A stretch of DNA of 51,902 bases from Clostridia bacterium (GTDB lineage: Bacteria > Bacillota > Clostridia > TANB77 > CAG-508): contig JAAWKZ010000005.1 of the NCBI GenBank assembly GCA_022797635.1, positions 1 to 51,902 of the forward strand, given 5' to 3'. The position numbers and the translations under genes were made by a program. Shown here piece by piece: positions 24,278-51,902 of this stretch; within the stretch, counting starts at the first letter, position 1; the number at the start of each line of letters is the position of its first letter. The notes below the pieces were generated by a model. That model saw nothing but the letters and a program-made list of their open reading frames with translations. It was not told the origin of the DNA and ran no database searches.

Positions 24278-25393
24278 TTAAAAATTTAATTTGTCATAAA
24301 CATATCTGTCCATTTTCTTAATAACTTTATAACTATTTCCCCTTTTCATATGGCCTCTCCAACTATAATAGGAATTCCATACTTGCTCTTTTGTCATTTT
24401 TCCTTCTTCTATCCACCTTTTAAAAGTTTTTATCTTTTTTCTCATTCTGGGAGTTGCATCTCTATTCATTTTCCTAATTACTTTTCCTGTTTGGGTACAA
24501 AAGAATTTTGTTTTCAAAAATTTAAAACCAGTAGCAAACTTTTGTATTTTAGTTTTCTTTTCATTTAGCATCAATCCTAGTTCAGCAACTTTCACTTTTA
24601 TTTTAGCTAATGTTTCTTTTGCTTCTTCTAAAGTTGCCGTAAAAAAGTAAAAATCATCCACATATCTTGCATAACATTTCACTCTTAACGTATCTTTGAT
24701 ATAATGGTCTAAGGGGGTTACAGCAATATTGGTATAAATCTGGGATGTATGGGCCCCAAGTCCAAAACTAGTATCACCATATAATTCCATACATAAATTA
24801 GCAACATGTCTAATCTTTTCATCATAAATACGTTTTTGGTGTTCTTTGTATACTACATAATGTGGTGCAGAATTGAAAAAGTCTTTAAAATCACAAGTAA
24901 CAATATAGCCATTTAAGCCATATTTTCTAAAGTGTCTTTGCATATGGCAATTCACTCTATCTAAGGTATGATCCATTCCTTTTCCTACTCTATTTGCTGC
25001 ATTATCATAAATAAATGTATTATCATAAATAGGAACAATTACATGGTCACATAAATCACGCTGAATAATTCTCTCACTTAACTTTTGTGCTTGAATTTTT
25101 CTTCTTTTTCCTCTTTCACAAACATAGAAAATATAGGGCTTTGAAAGCTTTAATTTATCTGTTTGTAAAGTTTCATAAATTTTATAAGTGGTAGAAATTC
25201 TTTTTTTAGCATAATTCTGTGTAGAAGCCTTCCATAATACATTTCTCATGCATTTTGTGCCAGCTTGATATAGATTTTCATAAGAAAATACTTCTTCAAA
25301 ACTACCACATGCTTCACTTTTCTTTCTTCTTTTTTCTTCCCTCATAGCTTTTCTTCTTTGGTATCTTAGTTCATGTCTTTCTTCACTTGTCAT
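24278..25393 (-). CDS. DGR reverse transcriptase
   Basis: GKRRKI, ERIIQR, DFKDFF, GAHTSQ (DGR-type SQ), LDHYIK, RYVDD and LNEKKT motifs; 371 aa, no maturase/HNH extension. Confidence 0.93.
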   Translation of the reverse strand: MTSEERHELRYQRRKAMREEKRRKKSEACGSFEEVFSYENLYQAGTKCMRNVLWKASTQNYAKKRISTTYKIYETLQTDKLKLSKPYIFYVCERGKRRKIQAQKLSERIIQRDLCDHVIVPIYDNTFIYDNAANRVGKGMDHTLDRVNCHMQRHFRKYGLNGYIVTCDFKDFFNSAPHYVVYKEHQKRIYDEKIRHVANLCMELYGDTSFGLGAHTSQIYTNIAVTPLDHYIKDTLRVKCYARYVDDFYFFTATLEEAKETLAKIKVKVAELGLMLNEKKTKIQKFATGFKFLKTKFFCTQTGKVIRKMNRDATPRMRKKIKTFKRWIEEGKMTKEQVWNSYYSWRGHMKRGNSYKVIKKMDRYVYDKLNF

Positions 25394-25403
25394 TTGTATG
25401 TTT

Positions 25404-25770
25404 AACCTCCGTACATTATAATTGCGAAGTAGAACTGACTATGAAATTGACACACTATAAAAATATGTCAACCATGCAAGCAGCGTCCAGTCATCTACAT
25501 CAAAGGTTCTTTTTGGTTTGTAATTACCACAAACTCAGGAACAAATTTCCCTTTCACAAAAGTTTTGATTCACTTTTTACAGTTACTATGTCTTACTTAT
25601 ATCTTGTGAAATCCAGGCGCAACGCCACCAGTGTTGCTCGCGTTGTTATTGTTGTTAGTGTTACCGTTGCTGTTGACATTGCAGAAGTTGTTGCTGTTGT
25701 TGTAATTAGGTGAACGAAGCCACCACCAGTTCGTACTGCCTGACAACGTAATTATCGAAATTTGACCTAT
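25404..25770 (-). ncRNA. DGR template cassette 7 (TR7 25609-25743)
   Basis: TR reads SGSTNWWWLRSPNYNNSNNFCNVNSNGNTNNNNNASNTGGVAPGF; spacer end contains the RT Shine-Dalgarno. Confidence 0.88.
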
Positions 25771-25853
25771 ACTTCCTTATATTTTTCTTAATAACCTTGA
25801 TTACAGAATTTTATTTTTTCCTAATTAAACACATAATTGACATATTAATTTTT

Positions 25854-26217
25854 AACCTTTGTACATATTTAATGCAAAGCAGAACTGGCTATGAAATTGA
25901 CATTCACTAAGAACTTATCAACCATGCAAATAGCGTCCAGCCATCTACATCAAAGGTTCTTTTCGGTTTGTGGTAACCACAAACTCAGGAACAGATCTCC
26001 CTTTCACAAAAGTTTTGCTTCACTTTTTACAGTTACTATGTCTCACTTATATCTTGTGAAATCCAGGCGCAACGCCATTGTTATTGCTCGCGTTGTTCCA
26101 GTCTGAAGCACCGTTGTTGTTGACATTGCAGAAGTTGCTGCTGTTGTTGTAATTAGGTGAACGAAGCCACCACCAGTTCGTACTGCCTGACAACGTAATT
26201 ATCGAGATTTGACCTAT
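25854..26217 (-). ncRNA. DGR template cassette 6 (TR6 26059-26190, one codon shorter)
   Basis: SGSTNWWWLRSPNYNNSSNFCNVNNNGASDWNNASNNNGVAPGF plus conserved leader and spacer. Confidence 0.88.
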
Positions 26218-26278
26218 ATTGAAATTTTATACTATTTTGTTATAACTTTAATTTTTTATTTAACTTATTTATTTTTCA

Positions 26279-26637
26279 AACCTTTGTACACCATTTATAG
26301 TAGAACTGACTATGAAATTGACATATAAAAAATATGTCAACCATGCAAGCAGCGTCCAGTCATCTACATCAAAGGTTCTTTTCAGTTTATATTTACTATA
26401 AACTTAGGAACAAATCTCCCTTTCACAAAAGTTTTGCTTCACCTTTTATTGGTTACTATGTCTTACTTATATCTTGTGAAATCCAGGCGCAACGCCATTG
26501 CTGTTGCTCGCGTTGTTATTGTTGCTGTTGCCGTTGCTGTCGATATTGCAGAAGTTGTTGCTGTTGTTGTAATTAGGTGAACGAAGCCACCACCAGTTCG
26601 TACTGCCTGACAACGTAATTATCGAGATTTGACCTAT
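26279..26637 (-). ncRNA. DGR template cassette 5 (TR5 26479-26610, one codon shorter)
   Basis: SGSTNWWWLRSPNYNNSNNFCNIDSNGNSNNNNASNSNGVAPGF. Confidence 0.88.
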
Positions 26638-26747
26638 ATTTCTTTAAAATCTCACTGTTTCTAGTCTCATACTGTCTTTCGATACTACTCATTATAAAAC
26701 TTTTCTATTTCCTTACTTAACATACATTTATTGGTATATTAATTTTC

Positions 26748-27115
26748 AACCTTTGTACATACTTAATGCAAAGCAGAACTGGCTATGAAATTGACATTCA
26801 CTAAGAACTTATCAACCATGCAAGCAGCGTCCAGCCATCTACATCAAAGGTTCTTTTCGGTTTGTATTTACTACAAACTCAGGAACAAATTTCCCTTTCA
26901 CAAAAGTTTTGATTCACCTTTTATTGGTTACTATGTCTTACTTATATCTTGTGAAATCCAGGCGCAACGCCATTGTTGTTGCTCGCGTTGTTCCAGTTGT
27001 CTGTGTTGCCGTTGCTGTTGACATTGCAGAAGTTGCTGCTGTTGTTGTAATTAGGTGAACGAAGCCACCAGTTGACCGTACTGCCTGACAACGTAATTAT
27101 CGAAATTTGACCTAT
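26748..27115 (-). ncRNA. DGR template cassette 4 (TR4 26954-27088)
   Basis: SGSTVNWWLRSPNYNNSSNFCNVNSNGNTDNWNNASNNNGVAPGF. Confidence 0.88.
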
Positions 27116-27200
27116 TCTATACATGTTCTAATTCTCTATAAACTTTAAAATAATATTTCATTTTATCCTATGCTTGACACATACTGATACTTTAATTTTT

Positions 27201-27560
27201 AACCCTTGTACACTATTTACAGTAGAACTGACTATGAAATTGACATAAAAAATATGCCAACCATGCAAGCAGCGTCCAGTCATCTACATCAAAGGTTCTT
27301 TTTGGTTTGTAATTTCTACAAACTCAGGAACAAATTTCCCTTTCACAAAAGTTTTGCTTCACCTTTTATTGGTTACTATGTCTTACTTATATCTTGTGAA
27401 ATCCAGGCGCAACGCCATTGTTGTTGCTCGCGTTGTTGCTGTTGTTAGTGTTACCGTTGTTGTTGACATTGCAGAAGTAGTTGCTGCCGTCGTAACCAGG
27501 TGAACGAAGCCACCACCAGTTCGTACTGCCTGACAACGTAATTATTAAAATTTGACCTAT
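27201..27560 (-). ncRNA. DGR template cassette 3 (TR3 27399-27533)
   Basis: SGSTNWWWLRSPGYDGSNYFCNVNNNGNTNNSNNASNNNGVAPGF. Confidence 0.88.
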
Positions 27561-27656
27561 ACTATTTTATATTTTTAAAACCTTAATGATAGAATTTTAC
27601 TTTATTTCCTTACTTAACATATATTGACATATTATTGAATATTAATATCTTCTTTT

Positions 27657-28010
27657 AACCTCTGTACGAAGTAGAACTGACTATGAAATTGACACATAAA
27701 AATATGTCAACCATGTAAACAGCGTCCAGCCATCTACATCAAAGGTTCTTTTTGGTTCGTAATTTCTACAAACTCAGGAACAAATTTCCCTTTCACAAAA
27801 GTTTTACTTCACCTTTTATAGGTTACTATGTCTTACTTATATCTTGTGAAATCCAGGCGCAGCGCCACTATGGTTGCTCGCACCGTCCGCGTTATCCGTG
27901 TCACCACTGCTGCCGACATAACAGAAGTAGTATCTGTCGCTGTAATAAGGTGAACGAAGCCACCACCAGAGCGTACTGCCTGACAACGCAATTATCAAAA
28001 TTTGACCTAT
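27657..28010 (-). ncRNA. DGR template cassette 2 (adenine-poor, VR-like core 27849-27983)
   Basis: SGSTLWWWLRSPYYSDRYYFCYVGSSGDTDNADGASNHSGAAPGF in intact leader/spacer flanks. Confidence 0.8.
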
Positions 28011-28107
28011 TCTATTTTATATTTTTAAAACCTTAATGATAGAATTTTACTTTATTTCCTTATTTAACATATATTGACATATTATTGAATATTAATATCT
28101 TAATTTT

Positions 28108-28465
28108 AACCTTTGTACTTTTTATAATAGAACTGGCTATGAAATTGACACATAAGATATGTCAACCATGCAAACAGCGTCCAGCCATCTACATCAAAGG
28201 TTCTTTTTGGTTCGTAATTTCTACAAACTCAGGAACAAATTTCCCTTTCACAAAAGTTTTGATTCACCTTTTATTGGTTACTATGTCTTACTTATATTTT
28301 GTGAAATCCAGGCGCAACACCATTGTTGTTGCTCGCGTTGTTGGCATTGTCTGTGTTGCCGCTGCTATTGACATTGCAGAAGTTGTTGCTGTTGTGGTAA
28401 TAAGGTGAACGAAGCCACCACCAGTGCGTACTGCCTGACAACGTAATTATCGAAATTTGACCTAT
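28108..28465 (-). ncRNA. DGR template cassette 1 (TR1 28304-28438), cognate template of the adjacent VR
   Basis: SGSTHWWWLRSPYYHNSNNFCNVNSSGNTDNANNASNNNGVAPGF; 12 of 13 mismatches to VR are at TR adenines. Confidence 0.92.
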
Positions 28466-28887
28466 AGTGTTTTAAATCTTTCAGCATCTGATTTCATGAT
28501 ACTTTTTAAAAGTCTCTGTTCTTCTGACAAAAGTCTTCCCCATTCCTGAAAAGCATACTCTTTCCATTCTTTATTTTCTTCTGGGTTCAGTTCTAATCTT
28601 GACTTCAATTCTGTCAATGGCAATTCCATATTTTCACAAGCAGCTAATGCTTGTTGAAAATGCATTTTACGATTTTGCGCATCTATTTTATTTTCTGGAA
28701 CAATATTATTGGCGATATTAGCCTCATAATATACTTTTCTTGCCAAACTACAAATATCTTTTGTCAAAAAGAATGTTAATCTTTTTGGAGATTTCAAGCA
28801 ATATGTCAAAGTATGCGCTGACAATTTCCTTGCATTCTCCAAAAATAAAGTTTTACTTTCATTTCTTTTACTTACATATACTGACAT
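28462..28887 (-). CDS. avd: DGR accessory variability determinant (Avd-like four-helix bundle)
   Basis: 141 aa, basic and helical, MSV..SKR.ES start; canonical position between target and TR; assignment largely positional. Confidence 0.8.
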   Translation of the reverse strand: MSVYVSKRNESKTLFLENARKLSAHTLTYCLKSPKRLTFFLTKDICSLARKVYYEANIANNIVPENKIDAQNRKMHFQQALAACENMELPLTELKSRLELNPEENKEWKEYAFQEWGRLLSEEQRLLKSIMKSDAERFKTL

Positions 28888-28912
28888 AATTGCTCTCCCT
28901 TTTATATAATTT

Positions 28913-28934
28913 TGTCCCTCCTTTCGGAGGGACA
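28913..28934 (-). promoter_or_regulatory. Candidate DGR target-recognition hairpin downstream of VR
   Basis: Perfect 9-bp stem tgtccctcc/ggagggaca with a GAAA loop on the minus strand, 75 nt after the target stop. Confidence 0.65.
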
Positions 28935-29009
28935 GATTTTTTCACCGTTTCTGGCTCATACCTCTATTTTGTTCTCTCTTCGCTCGTTGTTCGTGTCAAG
29001 GGCCAGATC

Positions 29010-31829
29010 CTAGATGCAAAAGCCAGGCGCAACACCAAAGTAGTTGCTCGCGTGGTTGGCATAGACTGTGTTGCCGCTGCTATAGACATAGCAGAAGTAG
29101 CTGCTGTTGTGGTAATAAGGCGAACGAAGCCACCACCAGTACGTACTGCCTGAGGCATTGTACTTTTGACGTCCTGTGCTCGAACTGTTCCATGCGTCTG
29201 TTACTCCTTGGTAATATTTATACTGTGGTCCTTCTGATGTGATTGCATAGCCGTATGTTCCACTTCCATTATATCCGTTATTTACTACCTCGCTTGCTGC
29301 TAATAACCATAAGTAATCATTACATGTTGCTACACTACTTGCACTATTATATGTTCCAATGTACTTCTTCTTTACTTGTTTGATATATGCTTTATTACTT
29401 AGCTTGTCTTTTCCTTCTGCTCCATTTAAAAATGTTCTCATTGCTGTATTTGCCCAGCCTCCACTGTTTGTATTACTACTGTTCATTTGCTTATATGTGT
29501 TTCCTGTCATGAAATCTAAGAATTCAAAACTTATACTTGCCTTACTATGGTTTCCTCCATACACTCCACTATTTACTAAATCATCGTGTTTAAATCCTAA
29601 TACTCTTACTCTTCTTTCATCTGTACCATATCTTACTTTATAGATATCTCCTACTTTTATGGTTTTACTTGTTCCATTTACTGTCACCGTTGCTTGTGTT
29701 GAACTGCTTGTAACACTACTATTTGCAATAGCTTTTGCCATCTCATTTAGTTCATCCCATGATGCTGCTATTTGATCCACTGCTTTTACTGTTACACTAC
29801 ATGTTGCTGATTTATTACTTCCATCCGCTGTCTTTACTGTGATTGTTGCAGTTCCTGCTTTTACACCTGTTACTAAACCTGTATTGCTTACTGTTGCTAC
29901 TCCTGTATTGCTTGAACTCCATGTTACTGATTTATTTTTTGTACCTGCTGGTGTTACTGTTGCTGTCAATTGTGTTGTCTTTCCTTCATCCATTGAAGCT
30001 GTTGTTGGGCTTACTGTTATTCCTGTTGCCAATTGATTTACAGTTACTGCTCCTGACACTGTTTCTACCTTATTTCCTGCATTATCTACTGTTAATACAT
30101 GTAAATAATATGTTCCTGCCGTTGTTGTTGACCATGTAATACTTTGACTATTGCTACTGAATGTTCCTCCTGTATAGCTACTTGCATTTGTTCCTAGCCT
30201 TGTAGCACTTGTTGTGAATACCCATTTACACTCTGCTGCTTTTGGTCCACTTTCATTATCTTGATGTGTTACTGTTGCTGTAATATTTGCTCCTGTATTT
30301 GCACTTGTTGTTAAATTACTAATTGTTGCCTTTGGATCTACTCCATCTCTTATTGCTACATATGCTGAATCTCCAGCGTTTGTTCCATCGTATAGTCTTG
30401 CATATACACTGTCTCCATGGTTCAACTCTGATACAGTTGTAGTCTTTGTTCCTGCTGGAACTGTTGTCCATGTTCCACTGATTCCATTCTTTTGCCATTG
30501 AATCTGTAAATTTGTTGAAGTAGTTAGTGTAATACTTGCTTTTCCACTTGACCATGTTGGACTACTTGCTATAATACTTCCTGTTGTTAAGTCCGAACCA
30601 GCTCCACCTACTGTTCCTGTTTTAATTCCAGTTGATGTTCCAGCTCCTTCATTCTCTGCTTTATCTTTTGTTGTTACTTTTACATCATAATTTGTATTTT
30701 GTGTTAATCCTGTAAAAGTATAGCTTGCATTTGTTCCTGTATATTTTGCTGTACCATAACTACTGTCTGATGACTTTTTAATGAAGAAACTATAGCTTGG
30801 ACTTGTTGCCATTCCCCATTCTGCATCTGTTGCTGATGCTGTTACTGTAATGCTATTTGTTGTTACACTTCCTTTAGCAACTGATACAATTGGTGCTCCT
30901 CCATCTCTAATTTCTACTGTTGCTACATCACCTTCATTTCTTCCATCTGTTGCTCTTGCATAAACTGTGTCGTTATGATTTAAGTTACCAATTGGTCCAT
31001 TATATGGTTGCCATGTTCCATCAATTCCATTAACTTGATATTCCAATTTAAATCTTGATTCTGCATCTTTTAACATTAATTCTATACTTGCTTTTCCAGC
31101 TGACCAAGTAGTTATTCCTTTTTGTTGAATTGTTCCATATCTTAATTCACCTGTTAATTCACTAATAACTGTCTCACTTGTTCCTTTTTTATTTTTTACA
31201 ACTACTTTTATATCATATATTTTGTCTGGGTCTAAATTAGTAAAGTCTGCAGTTAAATCTGTTGTATTTTGTTTTCCTGCCAACTCATGATAAGTTACCT
31301 CATCTGACTTTTTATAGTAATAGCTTAACTTTCCCTCTTCTAATCTTCTTACTGTTACTGCTACTGAAATACTATCGCTTGATTTAGTAGTTACTGTAAT
31401 TGATCCTACTTTTGGTGGTAGTTTGTCACCTTGTACCACTTCTCCTACTGAAATTTCTCCATCAGGTGTCACAATAATTTCTACTACACATCCATCTGTT
31501 GTATCTACTATATATACATCATTTTCTCCATCTTTATCTGGTCCTGTTACATCTTTATCACTCTCAATAATTCCTGCATCAATTAATTTATCCCAAAATT
31601 CATCTAGTCCAACATCTGGATTAGTTTGTTTTTGCATCCACCAATCCATAAGAGCAATCTCTATTTTTTCTCTTGCTTGTGCTGTTTGTGTCTTTTCCTT
31701 AGCTGCTACAGCTTTTTGAAATATACTATTATCTCCCATAACATAGTTAATAGTTATACCTGCTAAAATAAGTAAAACTACAATTGTAACTACTAATGCT
31801 ATTAAAGTAATACCTTTGTTTCTTTTCAT
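29010..31829 (-). CDS. DGR target: pilin-leader surface protein with FN3-like repeats, Big_2 Ig domain and C-terminal WWLRSP (DUF6273/CLec-like) variable domain
   Basis: MKRNKG-ITLIALVVTIVVLLILAG leader; FTGLTQNTNYDVKV (FN3); VTWSSSNTGVATV (Big_2); VR at the 3' end. Confidence 0.92.
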   Translation of the reverse strand: MKRNKGITLIALVVTIVVLLILAGITINYVMGDNSIFQKAVAAKEKTQTAQAREKIEIALMDWWMQKQTNPDVGLDEFWDKLIDAGIIESDKDVTGPDKDGENDVYIVDTTDGCVVEIIVTPDGEISVGEVVQGDKLPPKVGSITVTTKSSDSISVAVTVRRLEEGKLSYYYKKSDEVTYHELAGKQNTTDLTADFTNLDPDKIYDIKVVVKNKKGTSETVISELTGELRYGTIQQKGITTWSAGKASIELMLKDAESRFKLEYQVNGIDGTWQPYNGPIGNLNHNDTVYARATDGRNEGDVATVEIRDGGAPIVSVAKGSVTTNSITVTASATDAEWGMATSPSYSFFIKKSSDSSYGTAKYTGTNASYTFTGLTQNTNYDVKVTTKDKAENEGAGTSTGIKTGTVGGAGSDLTTGSIIASSPTWSSGKASITLTTSTNLQIQWQKNGISGTWTTVPAGTKTTTVSELNHGDSVYARLYDGTNAGDSAYVAIRDGVDPKATISNLTTSANTGANITATVTHQDNESGPKAAECKWVFTTSATRLGTNASSYTGGTFSSNSQSITWSTTTAGTYYLHVLTVDNAGNKVETVSGAVTVNQLATGITVSPTTASMDEGKTTQLTATVTPAGTKNKSVTWSSSNTGVATVSNTGLVTGVKAGTATITVKTADGSNKSATCSVTVKAVDQIAASWDELNEMAKAIANSSVTSSSTQATVTVNGTSKTIKVGDIYKVRYGTDERRVRVLGFKHDDLVNSGVYGGNHSKASISFEFLDFMTGNTYKQMNSSNTNSGGWANTAMRTFLNGAEGKDKLSNKAYIKQVKKKYIGTYNSASSVATCNDYLWLLAASEVVNNGYNGSGTYGYAITSEGPQYKYYQGVTDAWNSSSTGRQKYNASGSTYWWWLRSPYYHNSSYFCYVYSSGNTVYANHASNYFGVAPGFCI
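29019..29153 (-). repeat. DGR variable repeat (VR)
   Basis: Colinear 135-nt match to TR1; encodes SGSTYWWWLRSPYYHNSSYFCYVYSSGNTVYANHASNYFGVAPGF. Confidence 0.93.
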
Positions 31830-50746: not shown

Positions 50747-51902
50747 TTAGATACAAAATCCTGGGGCTACAGCACTACTATATCCTGCACTATTATGATG
50801 ACCAACACTGCCACTAGCATTAACATTACAGAAGTCATTTCCACTACTGTAATAAGGCGAACGAAGCCACCAACCATATGCACTTCCTCCTGTCTTCTTT
50901 GTACGTTCACTACTTAATGAGTTCCAGCTCGCTGATATTCCTTGGTAATATTTATACTGGCCTCCCTCTGTTGTAATTGCATATGCATAATATCCACTTT
51001 GATATCCACTATTTACTATTTCGCTTGCTGCTAATAACCATAAATAATCGTTACATGTTGTTACACTACTTGCACTATTATATGTTGCAATATATCTTTT
51101 CTTTACTTGTTTAATATAAGCTTTATTACTTAGTTTTTCCTTTCCGTCTGTTCCATTTAAGAATGTTCTCATAGCGGTTGAACCCCAACCACCAGAATTT
51201 GTGTGACTACTATTCATGTTCTTTTGCGTTGAGCCTGTCATGAAATCCAAAAACTCAAAACTAATACTTGCTTTTGTATGGCTTCCTCCATATATTCCTG
51301 TATTTACTAAATCATCATGTTTGAAACCTAATACTCTTACTTGTCTTTCTTCCCCATTGTATTTTACTTTATAGATTCCACCTACACTTATTTCATAACG
51401 TTCTCCATTTGCTGTATATCCTGTTGCTTTTGTTGAACTACTGTTAATGCTACTATCTTTTGCTATTGCTGTCGCTATTCTGTTCATTGTTGCCCAGCTT
51501 GCATCATCTGATCCTATTGTAACTGGTGTTGGATCTTGTACTGTTATGCTACAGGTTGCCGACTTATTACTTCCATCTGCCGTCTTCGCTGTAATTGTTA
51601 CATTTCCTGCTTTTACTCCTGTTACTACACCACTAGAGTTTACTGTTGCTACTCCTGTATTGCTACTTGTCCATGTTACTCCTTTATTTGATGCATTACT
51701 TGGTGTTACTGTTGCAGTTAATTGCTTTGTTTTCCCTTTTTCTACAGTTGTAGGTGTTGGACTTACTGTTATTCCTGTTGCTAATTGTCTTACTGTTACT
51801 GCCCCTGATACTGTTTCTAATGCATTTCCTGCATTATCTACACTTAATACATGTAAATAGTAGGTTCCTGGTGAACTCGCATTTAAATTTATCGTTTGTC
51901 CA
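50747..51902 (-). CDS. Paralog of the DGR target protein, 3' part (starts beyond the right edge)
   Basis: Frame open to the window end: ...GTYYLHVLSVDNAGN..., Big_2 domain, VRVLGFKHDDL, WWLRSP...VAPGFCI; closely parallels 29010..31829. Confidence 0.9.
   Translation of the reverse strand, partial: GQTINLNASSPGTYYLHVLSVDNAGNALETVSGAVTVRQLATGITVSPTPTTVEKGKTKQLTATVTPSNASNKGVTWTSSNTGVATVNSSGVVTGVKAGNVTITAKTADGSNKSATCSITVQDPTPVTIGSDDASWATMNRIATAIAKDSSINSSSTKATGYTANGERYEISVGGIYKVKYNGEERQVRVLGFKHDDLVNTGIYGGSHTKASISFEFLDFMTGSTQKNMNSSHTNSGGWGSTAMRTFLNGTDGKEKLSNKAYIKQVKKRYIATYNSASSVTTCNDYLWLLAASEIVNSGYQSGYYAYAITTEGGQYKYYQGISASWNSLSSERTKKTGGSAYGWWLRSPYYSSGNDFCNVNASGSVGHHNSAGYSSAVAPGFCI

Follow-up and report, generated by a model that had tools for sequence, protein, structure and literature searches.

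Judged by its sequence, the repeat pair analyzed here is real: a mutagenic retroelement (DGR) copied the template into the target. It lies in a window of 51,902 nucleotides, the whole stretch of DNA that was analyzed, from a Clostridia bacterium (assembly GCA_022797635.1, contig JAAWKZ010000005.1), and consists of a template repeat, TR1, and a variable repeat, VR, at a target gene's end (Table 1). A preliminary description had proposed a DGR TR/VR pair with adenine-specific mutagenesis, and this is upheld by the repeats, the reverse transcriptase (RT) domain, the RT-2 RNAs and the mismatch statistics. A TR/VR pair with one mismatch at a non-adenine (non-A) site is routine DGR biology. Less routine, and notable, is that seven complete template-plus-RNA modules serve one RT.

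The locus has the order of DUF6273 target gene with VR, weak Avd-like ORF, seven tandem modules of TR and full-length RT-2 RNA, and RT; it is chromosomal and set among housekeeping genes. The target protein matches Big_2 (Pfam, 1.1e-19) and DUF6273 (3.6e-16, residues 780-939), and its N-terminal N_methyl (pilin-like) match is weak, at 18.9 bits against a Pfam cut-off of 21.2. As is typical of DGRs, the VR occupies the 3′ end of the target, stopping 9 nt short of the ORF end, inside DUF6273, a candidate C-type-lectin-like, variation-tolerant domain. The RT carries the motifs LGAHTSQ (residue 212) and YVDD (residue 244). SQ in motif 4 ([I/L/V]GxxxSQ) marks DGR RTs, and by its motifs the protein belongs to this type. 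The small ORF between VR and TR1 is weakly similar, over near full length, to the PHROG family "Avd protein of DGR" (E 0.011, 16.2 bits, residues 2-139). It has no Pfam or NCBIfam family match, a sequence search of the PDB up to E 10 gave nothing, and its AlphaFold model (five helices, pLDDT 42.5, low confidence) is too poor for a fold search. The GC-rich inverted repeat upstream of this ORF may be a terminator or a DGR cruciform; directly after the target stop codon there is a 3-bp stem only. According to PMC5758913, an inverted repeat downstream of the IMH is present in only 34% of DGRs. A promoter and terminator scan gave no informative minus-strand promoter for individual modules.

Table 1. 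Coordinates of the DGR features in the window
Feature	Position	Strand	Basis or remark
RT, 371 aa	24278..25393	-	RVT_1 6.8e-15 (Pfam)
RT-2 RNA, module 7, abutting RT gene	25384..25600	-	117.8 bits
TR7	25609..25743	-	matches remote VR on contig C28
RT-2 RNA, module 6	25834..26050	-	111.7 bits
TR6, 3-nt deletion vs TR1	26056..26190	-	repeat comparison
RT-2 RNA, module 5	26259..26470	-	105.3 bits
TR5, 3-nt deletion vs TR1	26476..26610	-	repeat comparison
RT-2 RNA, module 4	26728..26945	-	116.2 bits
TR4	26954..27088	-	repeat comparison
RT-2 RNA, module 3	27181..27390	-	106.5 bits
TR3	27399..27533	-	repeat comparison
RT-2 RNA, module 2	27637..27840	-	93.2 bits
TR2, adenine-depleted sister of TR1	27849..27983	-	27 A, 2 AAC
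RT-2 RNA (RF03077), module 1, directly after TR1	28088..28295	-	100.7 bits, E 3.3e-23, model 1-222
TR1, donor of VR body	28304..28438	-	1 non-A mismatch to VR
Avd-like accessory ORF, 141 aa, between VR and TR1	28462..28887	-	predicted all-helical
GC-rich inverted repeat, 11 pairs, between target gene and Avd-like ORF	28911..28936	.	~83 nt beyond VR end
Target gene, 939 aa: Big_2, fn3-like repeats, C-terminal DUF6273 holding VR	29010..31829	-	ORF + Pfam
VR, 135 nt	29019..29153	-	90% identical to TR1
IMH-like VR 3′ end	29022..29033	-	GC-rich block (positions 121-131) common to all TRs, then C at 132
Odd VR site, repeat position 13, codon first base, TAC (Tyr)	29141	-	T vs TR1 C at 28426 (CAC)
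Second VR-like 3′ end	50756..50890	-	in Big_2 + DUF6273 ORF cut by window end

The homology of TR1 and VR stops at both ends of the 135 nt. On the minus-strand alignment the mismatches are exactly as first described, 13 in number and 12 of them at TR1 adenines (8 A>T, 2 A>G, 2 A>C). With 40 adenines in the 135 nt of TR1, chance would put at least 12 of the 13 mismatches at A with a probability of 4.3e-6 under the binomial and 1.2e-6 under the hypergeometric distribution. One of the A>C differences, at position 132 (28307/29022), was rejected as a product of mutagenesis, because A stands there in all seven TRs and C in the best-preserved VRs, and because an identical pair (TR GGATTT, VR GGCTTT) recurs in distant relatives. 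The pair is seen in L001, L027 and L031. Position 132 is thus a fixed TR/VR discriminator, which leaves 11 mutagenic A-site changes. It stands directly after the shared GC-rich block, with unrelated sequence beyond, the arrangement expected of an IMH in the VR and a non-identical IMH* in the TR.

Non-A mismatches to VR number one for TR1 and 7-25 for the other TRs (plus 3 gap columns for TR5 and TR6), and every TR except TR1 shows at least 7 non-A mismatches or gap columns. VR equals TR1 at 94 of 95 non-A sites and carries all six TR1-specific derived states, acquired after the TR1/TR2 split (positions 43, 72, 81, 93, 96 and 120). These alignments show TR1 to have templated the VR body, and by the same comparison it is the only possible donor for VR positions 72-135. 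The central signature ACA-GAC-AAT-GCC had been said to fit only TR1; ACA-GAC also fits TR4, and it is AAT-GCC (non-A positions 93-96) that is exclusive to TR1. VR positions 1-69 fit TR5, TR6 and TR7 equally well as TR1, with no non-A mismatches to VR for TR5 over positions 1-69 and for TR6 and TR7 over 1-71. That the DGR was recently active is a reasonable inference.

The single exception to adenine specificity had been given as CAC in TR1 against TAC in VR, with AAC in TR3, TR5, TR6 and TR7, and both statements agree with our alignments. The odd codon is CTC in TR2 and GTC in TR4; position 13 is therefore A in four of the seven TRs. C at this position is one of six derived states common to TR1 and TR2, and VR has the other five. 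Among the 95 non-A sites of TR1, 6 are A in at least three other TRs, and a random hit would fall on such a site with P ~0.06. Position 13 is the 5′-most difference between TR1 and VR (the next is at position 33) and the only one that separates the first 36 nt of TR1 from TR3, TR5, TR6 and TR7; the 19-nt block that follows, positions 14-32, is identical in every TR and VR. In the genome, 7 of 17 VR-like loci have TAC or TAT at the odd codon, TAC being found also in the VRs on contigs C28 and C24, and the target gene and its C28 paralogue are identical over 52 nt spanning the VR start, T at 29141 included. The codon is a truly variable NNC codon, because VRs with the same 3′ end in two close relatives carry AAC, ATC, GTC, ACC, GGC or CGC there. 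One non-A mismatch is an ordinary kind of exception, which the preliminary description overweighted, since at least one such non-A-to-N difference occurs in 86 of 372 surveyed DGRs (23%); the causes named by the authors of that survey are atypical RT incorporation, integration or repair, and unrelated mutation (PMC5758913).

The seven TRs, each with its own complete RT-2 RNA, stand head-to-tail with a period of ~450 nt and share one RT. All seven covariance-model matches to the RNA (93.2-117.8 bits; RF03077 gathering score 40 bits) extend over model positions 1-222. The flanks of modules 1 and 2 form the closest pair, with 94.6% identity. The TR copies have diverged mainly at adenines, with 47 of 84 changes from the majority base being from A and 11 to A. 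TR2 has diverged most in this way, and the other TRs hold 40-44 A and 8-13 AAC. Divergence at non-adenine sites is concentrated in third codon positions, though TRs are untranslated. The pattern suggests that the templates themselves are shaped by the mutational signature of the DGR, together with selection that acts via the target proteins.

In the genome there are ~17 paralogous target 3′ ends (the VR-like loci), and 8 of the 17 target ORFs are cut by contig ends. TR7 and the C28 VR form a second clean pair, with 18 A-site and 2 non-A mismatches, the latter both G:C>A:T transitions. In 15 of the 17 loci there are at least 7 non-A mismatches to any single TR, and at least 4 when mosaics of up to three templates are allowed; most targets look frozen. 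The second VR-like 3′ end in the window has a degenerate IMH and matches no TR: at least 32 non-A mismatches remain whichever TR, or combination of up to two templates, it is compared with. In a mosaic search over the 17 loci, one switch took the VR under study from 1 to 0 non-A mismatches. Elsewhere little was gained (two switches brought C24 from 7 to 4), and we do not take the search as evidence for general mosaicism.

How did T come to stand at 29141? If the element works like the DGR of the Bordetella phage, its RT, probably aided by the Avd-like protein, would copy TR and RT-2 RNA into cDNA, adenines would be misread during the copying, and the cDNA would take the place of the VR in the 3′ end of the target gene. 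We see about an even chance that T at 29141 is an older state at the 5′-most variable codon, kept as TR1-templated rewriting resolved downstream of it. It would then not stem from TR1 as that is now or as it recently was; the most plausible origin would be an earlier A>T on an AAC-bearing template (another array member or a TR ancestor), and the alternative an import from a paralogous target gene. The 5′ junction of the rewriting would have been completed inside the invariant block, selection for Tyr may have helped to retain the T, and VR would be a sequential mosaic instead of stemming from one chimeric cDNA. For an older state speak A>T as the commonest change in VR (8 of 12), the adenine at position 13 in most TRs, the place of the site among the few that are A in other TRs, the variability of the codon in close relatives, the location of the difference at the 5′ edge, and TAC in the C28 and C24 VRs. 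It has been reported that 5′ cDNA integration needs only at least 8 bp of homology and can use internal sites (PMC3240598) and that the 5′ boundary is imprecise across DGRs (PMC5758913). The preliminary description had offered either a VR mosaic of two templates or a later hit on TR1. A mosaic is possible, given the fit of the VR 5′ half to TR5-TR7, but it is not required, because incomplete 5′ rewriting, paralogue exchange or a plain C>T transition give the same sequence.

Against an older state it must be said that a lone non-A mismatch needs no special story, and that the mosaic search turned up no convincing second example among the other 16 VR-like loci. The main rival, which we consider possible though not probable, is that the whole VR was last written from TR1 with CAC and then underwent a C>T transition, spontaneous or through an RT or repair error at a non-adenine, kept perhaps as Tyr was favored. 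The genome has 30.4% GC, the two clean TR/VR pairs have three non-A mismatches between them, each a G:C>A:T transition, and both the frequency of non-A-to-N differences in surveyed DGRs and the Tyr codons at paralogous loci suit a plain transition. If Tyr is favored, a His>Tyr point mutation would be selected, which weakens the argument from P ~0.06. What a plain transition leaves to coincidence is that the hit fell on one of those 6 of 95 sites, that T is the exact base expected from the commonest A-substitution of the VR, and that the same T lies inside the block identical to the C28 paralogue.

A later change in TR1, in which AAC wrote the VR (A>T) and A>C at 28426 followed, appears highly unlikely. 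It would accord with the preferential divergence of TR copies at adenines and with AAC in four of the seven TRs. However, the sister copy TR2 has the C as well; the C therefore probably predates the last TR1-to-VR transfer, which disfavors a later hit. VR already has all six later TR1-specific changes, so the C should be older than the transfer unless it arose twice or spread by conversion; convergence or gene conversion in TR1 and TR2 would likewise count against T as an older state. At 28426 no alternative letter is listed in contigs of X1, X2 and X4, a weak point, as other-module contigs are mixed in.

Equally small is the chance of a single chimeric cDNA, in which the RT, working on TR1 RNA, switched within positions 14-36 to an AAC-bearing module (TR3, TR5, TR6 or TR7) and misread A as T. 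The modules have one and the same sequence at positions 14-32 and almost the same throughout 1-36, the only non-A mismatch disappears once a single switch is allowed, and template switching has been proposed for 5′ integration in BPP-1 (PMC3240598). Yet the outcome in sequence is the same as that of the simpler sequential model, and allowing one or two switches brings no clear improvement at the other 16 VR-like loci.

Public contigs place the stretch in 20 runs of 12 studies (mouse-gut and faecal metagenomes; Logan contigs). Contigs of X1, X2, X4 and X5 cover ~28437-29037 with 0-2 differences, and those of X1, X2 and X4 cover 29144-29311 with none; 29038-29143 is bridged by no listed contig, a gap that carries no evidence either way. 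The break at 29144 says nothing about hypervariability: a graph of 31-mers, on reaching the 52-nt block common to this gene and C28, would end at exactly that point. Letters listed over TR1 come mostly from other-module contigs aligned at 90% likeness. One X4 contig continues for 255 unlike letters beyond 29037. An assembly artefact, joining the 5′ edge of a paralogous target to the VR via shared sequence, is hardly credible: target ORFs cut by contig ends and the 52-nt block would favor it, but with a true C at position 13 the shared block would be 19 nt, presumably too short for a mis-join at usual k-mer sizes, and the public contigs match 29144-29311 without a difference.

A search of 60 relatives, among them 36 from the same genus, found no RF03077. 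In L027, whose RT is 98% identical, one TR stands between Avd-like ORF and RT; by inspection this TR and the L027 VR do not match, so the array may have collapsed in assembly there. The L028 sequence breaks off within the array and has at least two modules. Neither L027 nor L028 holds a TR1 orthologue able to date the C at 28426.

A wider reading, which we regard as rather unlikely, puts the template library itself inside the mutagenic cycle: TRs would occasionally be rewritten at adenines (by leaky self-homing or VR-to-TR back-conversion), VRs would possibly be multi-template, and T at 29141 would be a footprint of cross-template traffic. If true, successful variants would be "hard-wired", as in TR2 and the five shared A-derived TR1/TR2 sites. 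If confirmed, the locus would show a DGR enlarging and updating its repertoire beyond one template, and would be a natural setting in which to study whether templates compete or recombine and whether VRs pass information back to them.

Among known systems, the DGR of Bordetella phage BPP-1 (mtd-VR, avd, TR, spacer RNA, brt) has the same order of target with VR, small accessory ORF, TR, structured RNA and RT. It also shares the adenine-specific TR-to-VR differences and the GC-rich 3′ block followed by a TR/VR-specific difference (IMH/IMH*). The structured RNA motif in its TR-RT gap is RT-10 (PMC5737381). The BPP-1 element is phage-borne with one TR-RNA module, whereas here the locus is chromosomal, with seven modules of the RT-2 family, ~17 paralogous target 3′ ends and weak Avd homology. 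DGRs of the Treponema denticola type, with remote and leftover targets, likewise have one RT and many non-adjacent, mostly frozen-looking targets, but as described they have one TR type per genome (PMC4891356; PMC5758913), in contrast to the seven diverged tandem TRs with one RT here.

More than one TR serving several VRs is known from multi-TR DGRs, for example Stenotrophomonas sp. SKA14 with two TRs and six VRs; in that survey ~20% of multi-VR DGRs have more than one TR, and 216 of 271 have only one (PMC6642488). The present array differs in that each of its seven TRs has a complete RT-2 RNA and that the copies show adenine-biased, codon-structured divergence. We found no published description of such a TR and RNA array in the literature; supplementary tables of surveys may list multi-TR cases.

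The RT-2 motif RF03077 was defined as adjoining RT genes (Weinberg et al. 2017, PMC5737381), as it does here; where that paper treats the RT motifs, only RT-10 is assigned to a DGR, with speculation that others serve DGRs. What differs here is that RT-2 starts directly at the TR 3′ end, as it also does in L001, L027 and L031, and for this reason it likely acts as the DGR spacer/priming RNA. L001, a human-gut metagenome contig with an Avd-like protein 77% identical to ours, has VR, Avd-like ORF, TR and one RT-2 RNA, the same TR/VR discriminator and, by inspection, adenine-specific differences; it differs in having one module and in TR/VR homology that begins at about position 17, with the odd codon outside its TR.

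The diversity-generating retroelement (DGR) occupies the minus strand, and its features are collected in the table below. It is chromosomal, as the neighbouring genes are of the housekeeping type (two class II aminoacyl-tRNA synthetase genes, RlmN, a PASTA kinase, Mfd, DnaG, and a sigma-70 factor). At the sequence level, the element qualifies as a DGR, whose activity and downstream hairpin are putative. Its Avd-like ORF is putative; besides the weak PHROG match, no family or structure support was found for it. The genome comprises 1.02 Mb in 37 contigs, is about 80% complete with 30.4% GC, and has mouse-gut MAGs as its nearest public records.

Features of the DGR locus and of a second target in the window
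Feature	Coordinates	Strand and order	Size	Annotation
Target gene		minus, first	939 aa	Big_2 and C-terminal DUF6273 containing the VR
Target protein N-terminus	31750-31829			Resembles type IV pilin-like methylation signal; 18.9 bits, under Pfam cut-off 21.2
Variable repeat (VR)	29153..29019	minus	135 nt	Within DUF6273
Inverted repeat	28911-28936	between target gene and Avd-like ORF	11 pairs	GC-rich; terminator score on plus strand only; on the minus strand it may be a terminator or a DGR cruciform
Avd-like ORF (putative)		minus, next after target gene, Avd position	141 aa	Weak match to PHROG "Avd protein of DGR" (E 0.011)
Seven template modules		minus, after Avd-like ORF, head-to-tail	~450 nt each	Template repeats TR1 to TR7
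TR1	28438..28304	minus	135 nt	
TR2	27849-27983		135 nt	
Reverse transcriptase		minus, last	371 aa	RVT_1; LGAHTSQ and YVDD
Second target ORF	50747-51901			Big_2 and DUF6273; cut by window end
VR-like 3' end of second target	50756-50890			Degenerate IMH (GC-rich 3' end)

The 135-nt alignment of TR1 with the VR has no gaps, and homology is lost abruptly on either side. The preliminary description had counted 13 differences, 12 of them at TR1 adenines (8 A>T, 2 A>G, and 2 A>C), and the recount gave exactly these numbers. As 40 of the 135 nt of TR1 are adenines, the probability that at least 12 of 13 mismatches fall at A is 4.3e-6 (binomial) or 1.2e-6 (hypergeometric). The A>C difference at repeat position 132 is a fixed discriminator between TR and VR rather than a product of mutagenesis. 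A stands at this site in every one of the seven TRs and C in the best-preserved VRs, a pairing seen again in distant relatives. The sole non-A mismatch affects the opening base of a codon (repeat position 13), where TR1 has C (28426, CAC) and the VR has T (29141, TAC). At this codon TR2 has CTC and TR4 has GTC; AAC, previously reported for TR3, TR5, TR6, and TR7, is indeed present in all four.

The body of the VR can be assigned to TR1 from sequence comparison, since TR1 has the fewest non-A mismatches to it (one, against 7-25 for the other TRs, with 3 further gap columns in TR5 and TR6) and all six TR1-specific states, at positions 43, 72, 81, 93, 96, and 120, are found in the VR. The signature ACA-GAC-AAT-GCC had been proposed as fitting TR1 only; this holds for its AAT-GCC part, and ACA-GAC is found in TR4 as well. 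At the 5' end, the sequences cannot discriminate between templates. Over positions 1-36, TR1 differs from TR3, TR5, TR6, and TR7 at position 13 only, and the first non-A mismatch to the VR comes no earlier than position 70 in TR5 and position 72 in TR6 and TR7.

How the T at 29141 arose can be explained in several ways. The explanation to which we give about an even chance is that it is an older, adenine-derived base, which would have been carried over when rewriting templated by TR1 produced a sequential mosaic. It is favored by where the mismatch falls, as only 6 of the 95 non-A sites of TR1, this one among them, are A in at least three other TRs (P ~0.06 for a chance hit), and by T being the commonest product of A-substitution in the present VR. 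Position 13 is also the 5'-most variable site, and the next 19 nt form a block that every TR and VR has unchanged. Published work agrees with this explanation: in phage BPP-1, 5' cDNA integration requires only at least 8 bp of homology and internal sites are usable (PMC3240598), and the 5' boundary is described as imprecise for DGRs generally (PMC5758913).

A plain C>T point change in the VR is the main rival explanation, which we consider less likely. Differences of the non-A-to-N kind are reported in 86 of 372 DGRs (PMC5758913), the genome has 30% GC, and both non-A mismatches between TR7 and its VR on another contig of the genome (C28) are likewise G:C>A:T transitions; selection for Tyr would favor precisely this mutation at the site. 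It is very unlikely that TR1 was altered after the last transfer, one of two options in the preliminary description, because its C is common to TR2, so that the two templates would need to have converged on it or passed it on by gene conversion. Outside the TRs, no two modules are as alike as 1 and 2 (94.6% identity), and polarisation against TR3-TR7 gives six derived states common to TR1 and TR2 (positions 13, 37, 77, 88, 94, and 95), of which the VR holds five and lacks only position 13. Since all later changes specific to TR1 are present in the VR too, the C at 28426 would most parsimoniously predate the split of TR1 and TR2 and hence the last transfer into the VR. A single chimeric cDNA, copied from an AAC-bearing TR through position 13 and from TR1 thereafter, would eliminate the only non-A mismatch with one template switch and leave none; we nevertheless hold it to be quite improbable. 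An assembly artefact is barely credible, and a small remainder of the probability goes to none of these explanations. The flagged mismatch itself is ordinary.

In this DGR family the codon is an NNC codon that truly varies and not a fixed scaffold residue, because VRs with the same 3' end in two close relatives have AAC, ATC, GTC, ACC, GGC, or CGC there. VR-like 3' ends occur in 17 ORFs of the genome, 8 of them cut by contig ends, and TAC or TAT is found at this codon in 7 of the 17, including those on C28 and C24. Across the VR start, T included, a 52-nt stretch of the C28 target is the same as in the present gene. Clean VR partners of the present TRs number only two, namely the window VR for TR1 and the C28 VR for TR7; the remaining 15 loci have at least 7 non-A mismatches to any single TR. 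At least 32 non-A mismatches separate the VR-like end of the second target in the window from each TR and from each mosaic built of at most two templates; this target is probably frozen. On eight contigs (C1, C9, C13, C16, C17, C19, C24, and C28), target ORFs leave the contig a few hundred bases upstream of the VR. As the assembly breaks inside this paralogous family, it may lack other targets and TR partners. Several remote targets (C28, C24, C6, C16, C19, and C29) have a common conserved stretch just past the stop codon, including an inverted repeat of 4-5 bp that recalls the hairpin after the IMH in BPP-1; at the flagged VR, the post-stop inverted repeat is of 3 bp only.

The window stretch is present as contigs in 20 public runs of 12 studies. 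In contigs from four of these runs that were compared with the window, the VR body is uncovered. The break in coverage at 29144 comes from the 52-nt block that a paralogue also has. One contig of a metagenome run (X4) matches up to 29037 and continues with 255 letters unlike the window VR, which may stem from a different VR allele or from a paralogue.

A more unusual feature than the flagged mismatch is the seven-module template array. Between TR1 and TR2 there are 28 differences over 135 positions, compared with 17 over 315 in their flanks (Fisher P = 3e-6), and 14 of the 21 changes on the TR2 branch are from A. TR2 has been left with 27 A and 2 AAC (other TRs, 40-44 A and 8-13 AAC), and its in-frame translation, rich in Y, D, G, S, and H, resembles a diversified VR, yet TR2 retains a TR-type 3' end and the full RT-2 RNA. 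Of its nine non-A departures from the base that prevails in the other six TRs, seven fall at third codon positions. The TRs together show 84 changes from the majority base, of which 47 replace an A and 11 create one. Of the 37 non-A changes, 24 fall at third codon positions, which make up 41 of the 90 non-A sites. An open frame with the conserved scaffold residues is preserved in each of the seven TRs. The untranslated templates thus appear to evolve like coding sequence with adenine-directed change added, as occasional self-homing or VR-to-TR conversion would yield.

DGRs with more than one TR are on record in a survey (PMC6642488). A tandem array of complete TR-plus-RNA modules was not found described in the literature searched, which included portions of PMC5758913. 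In a mouse MAG locus whose RT is 98% identical (L027:1-1300), a single TR lies between the Avd-like ORF and the RT. The adjacent VR does not match this TR on inspection of the printed pair, which suggests that the array may have collapsed in that assembly.

In each module of the present array, a full-length RT-2 RNA (Rfam RF03077; 93-118 bits) comes immediately after a 135-nt TR. In BPP-1, it is the RT-10 motif that lies in the gap between TR and RT, and other RT motifs have been speculated to serve DGRs (Weinberg et al., PMC5737381). RT-2 occupies that place seven times in the present locus and once in a related locus, L001, and the TRs of L027 and of a further relative, L031, lead into the same conserved TR/RT-2 junction sequence.
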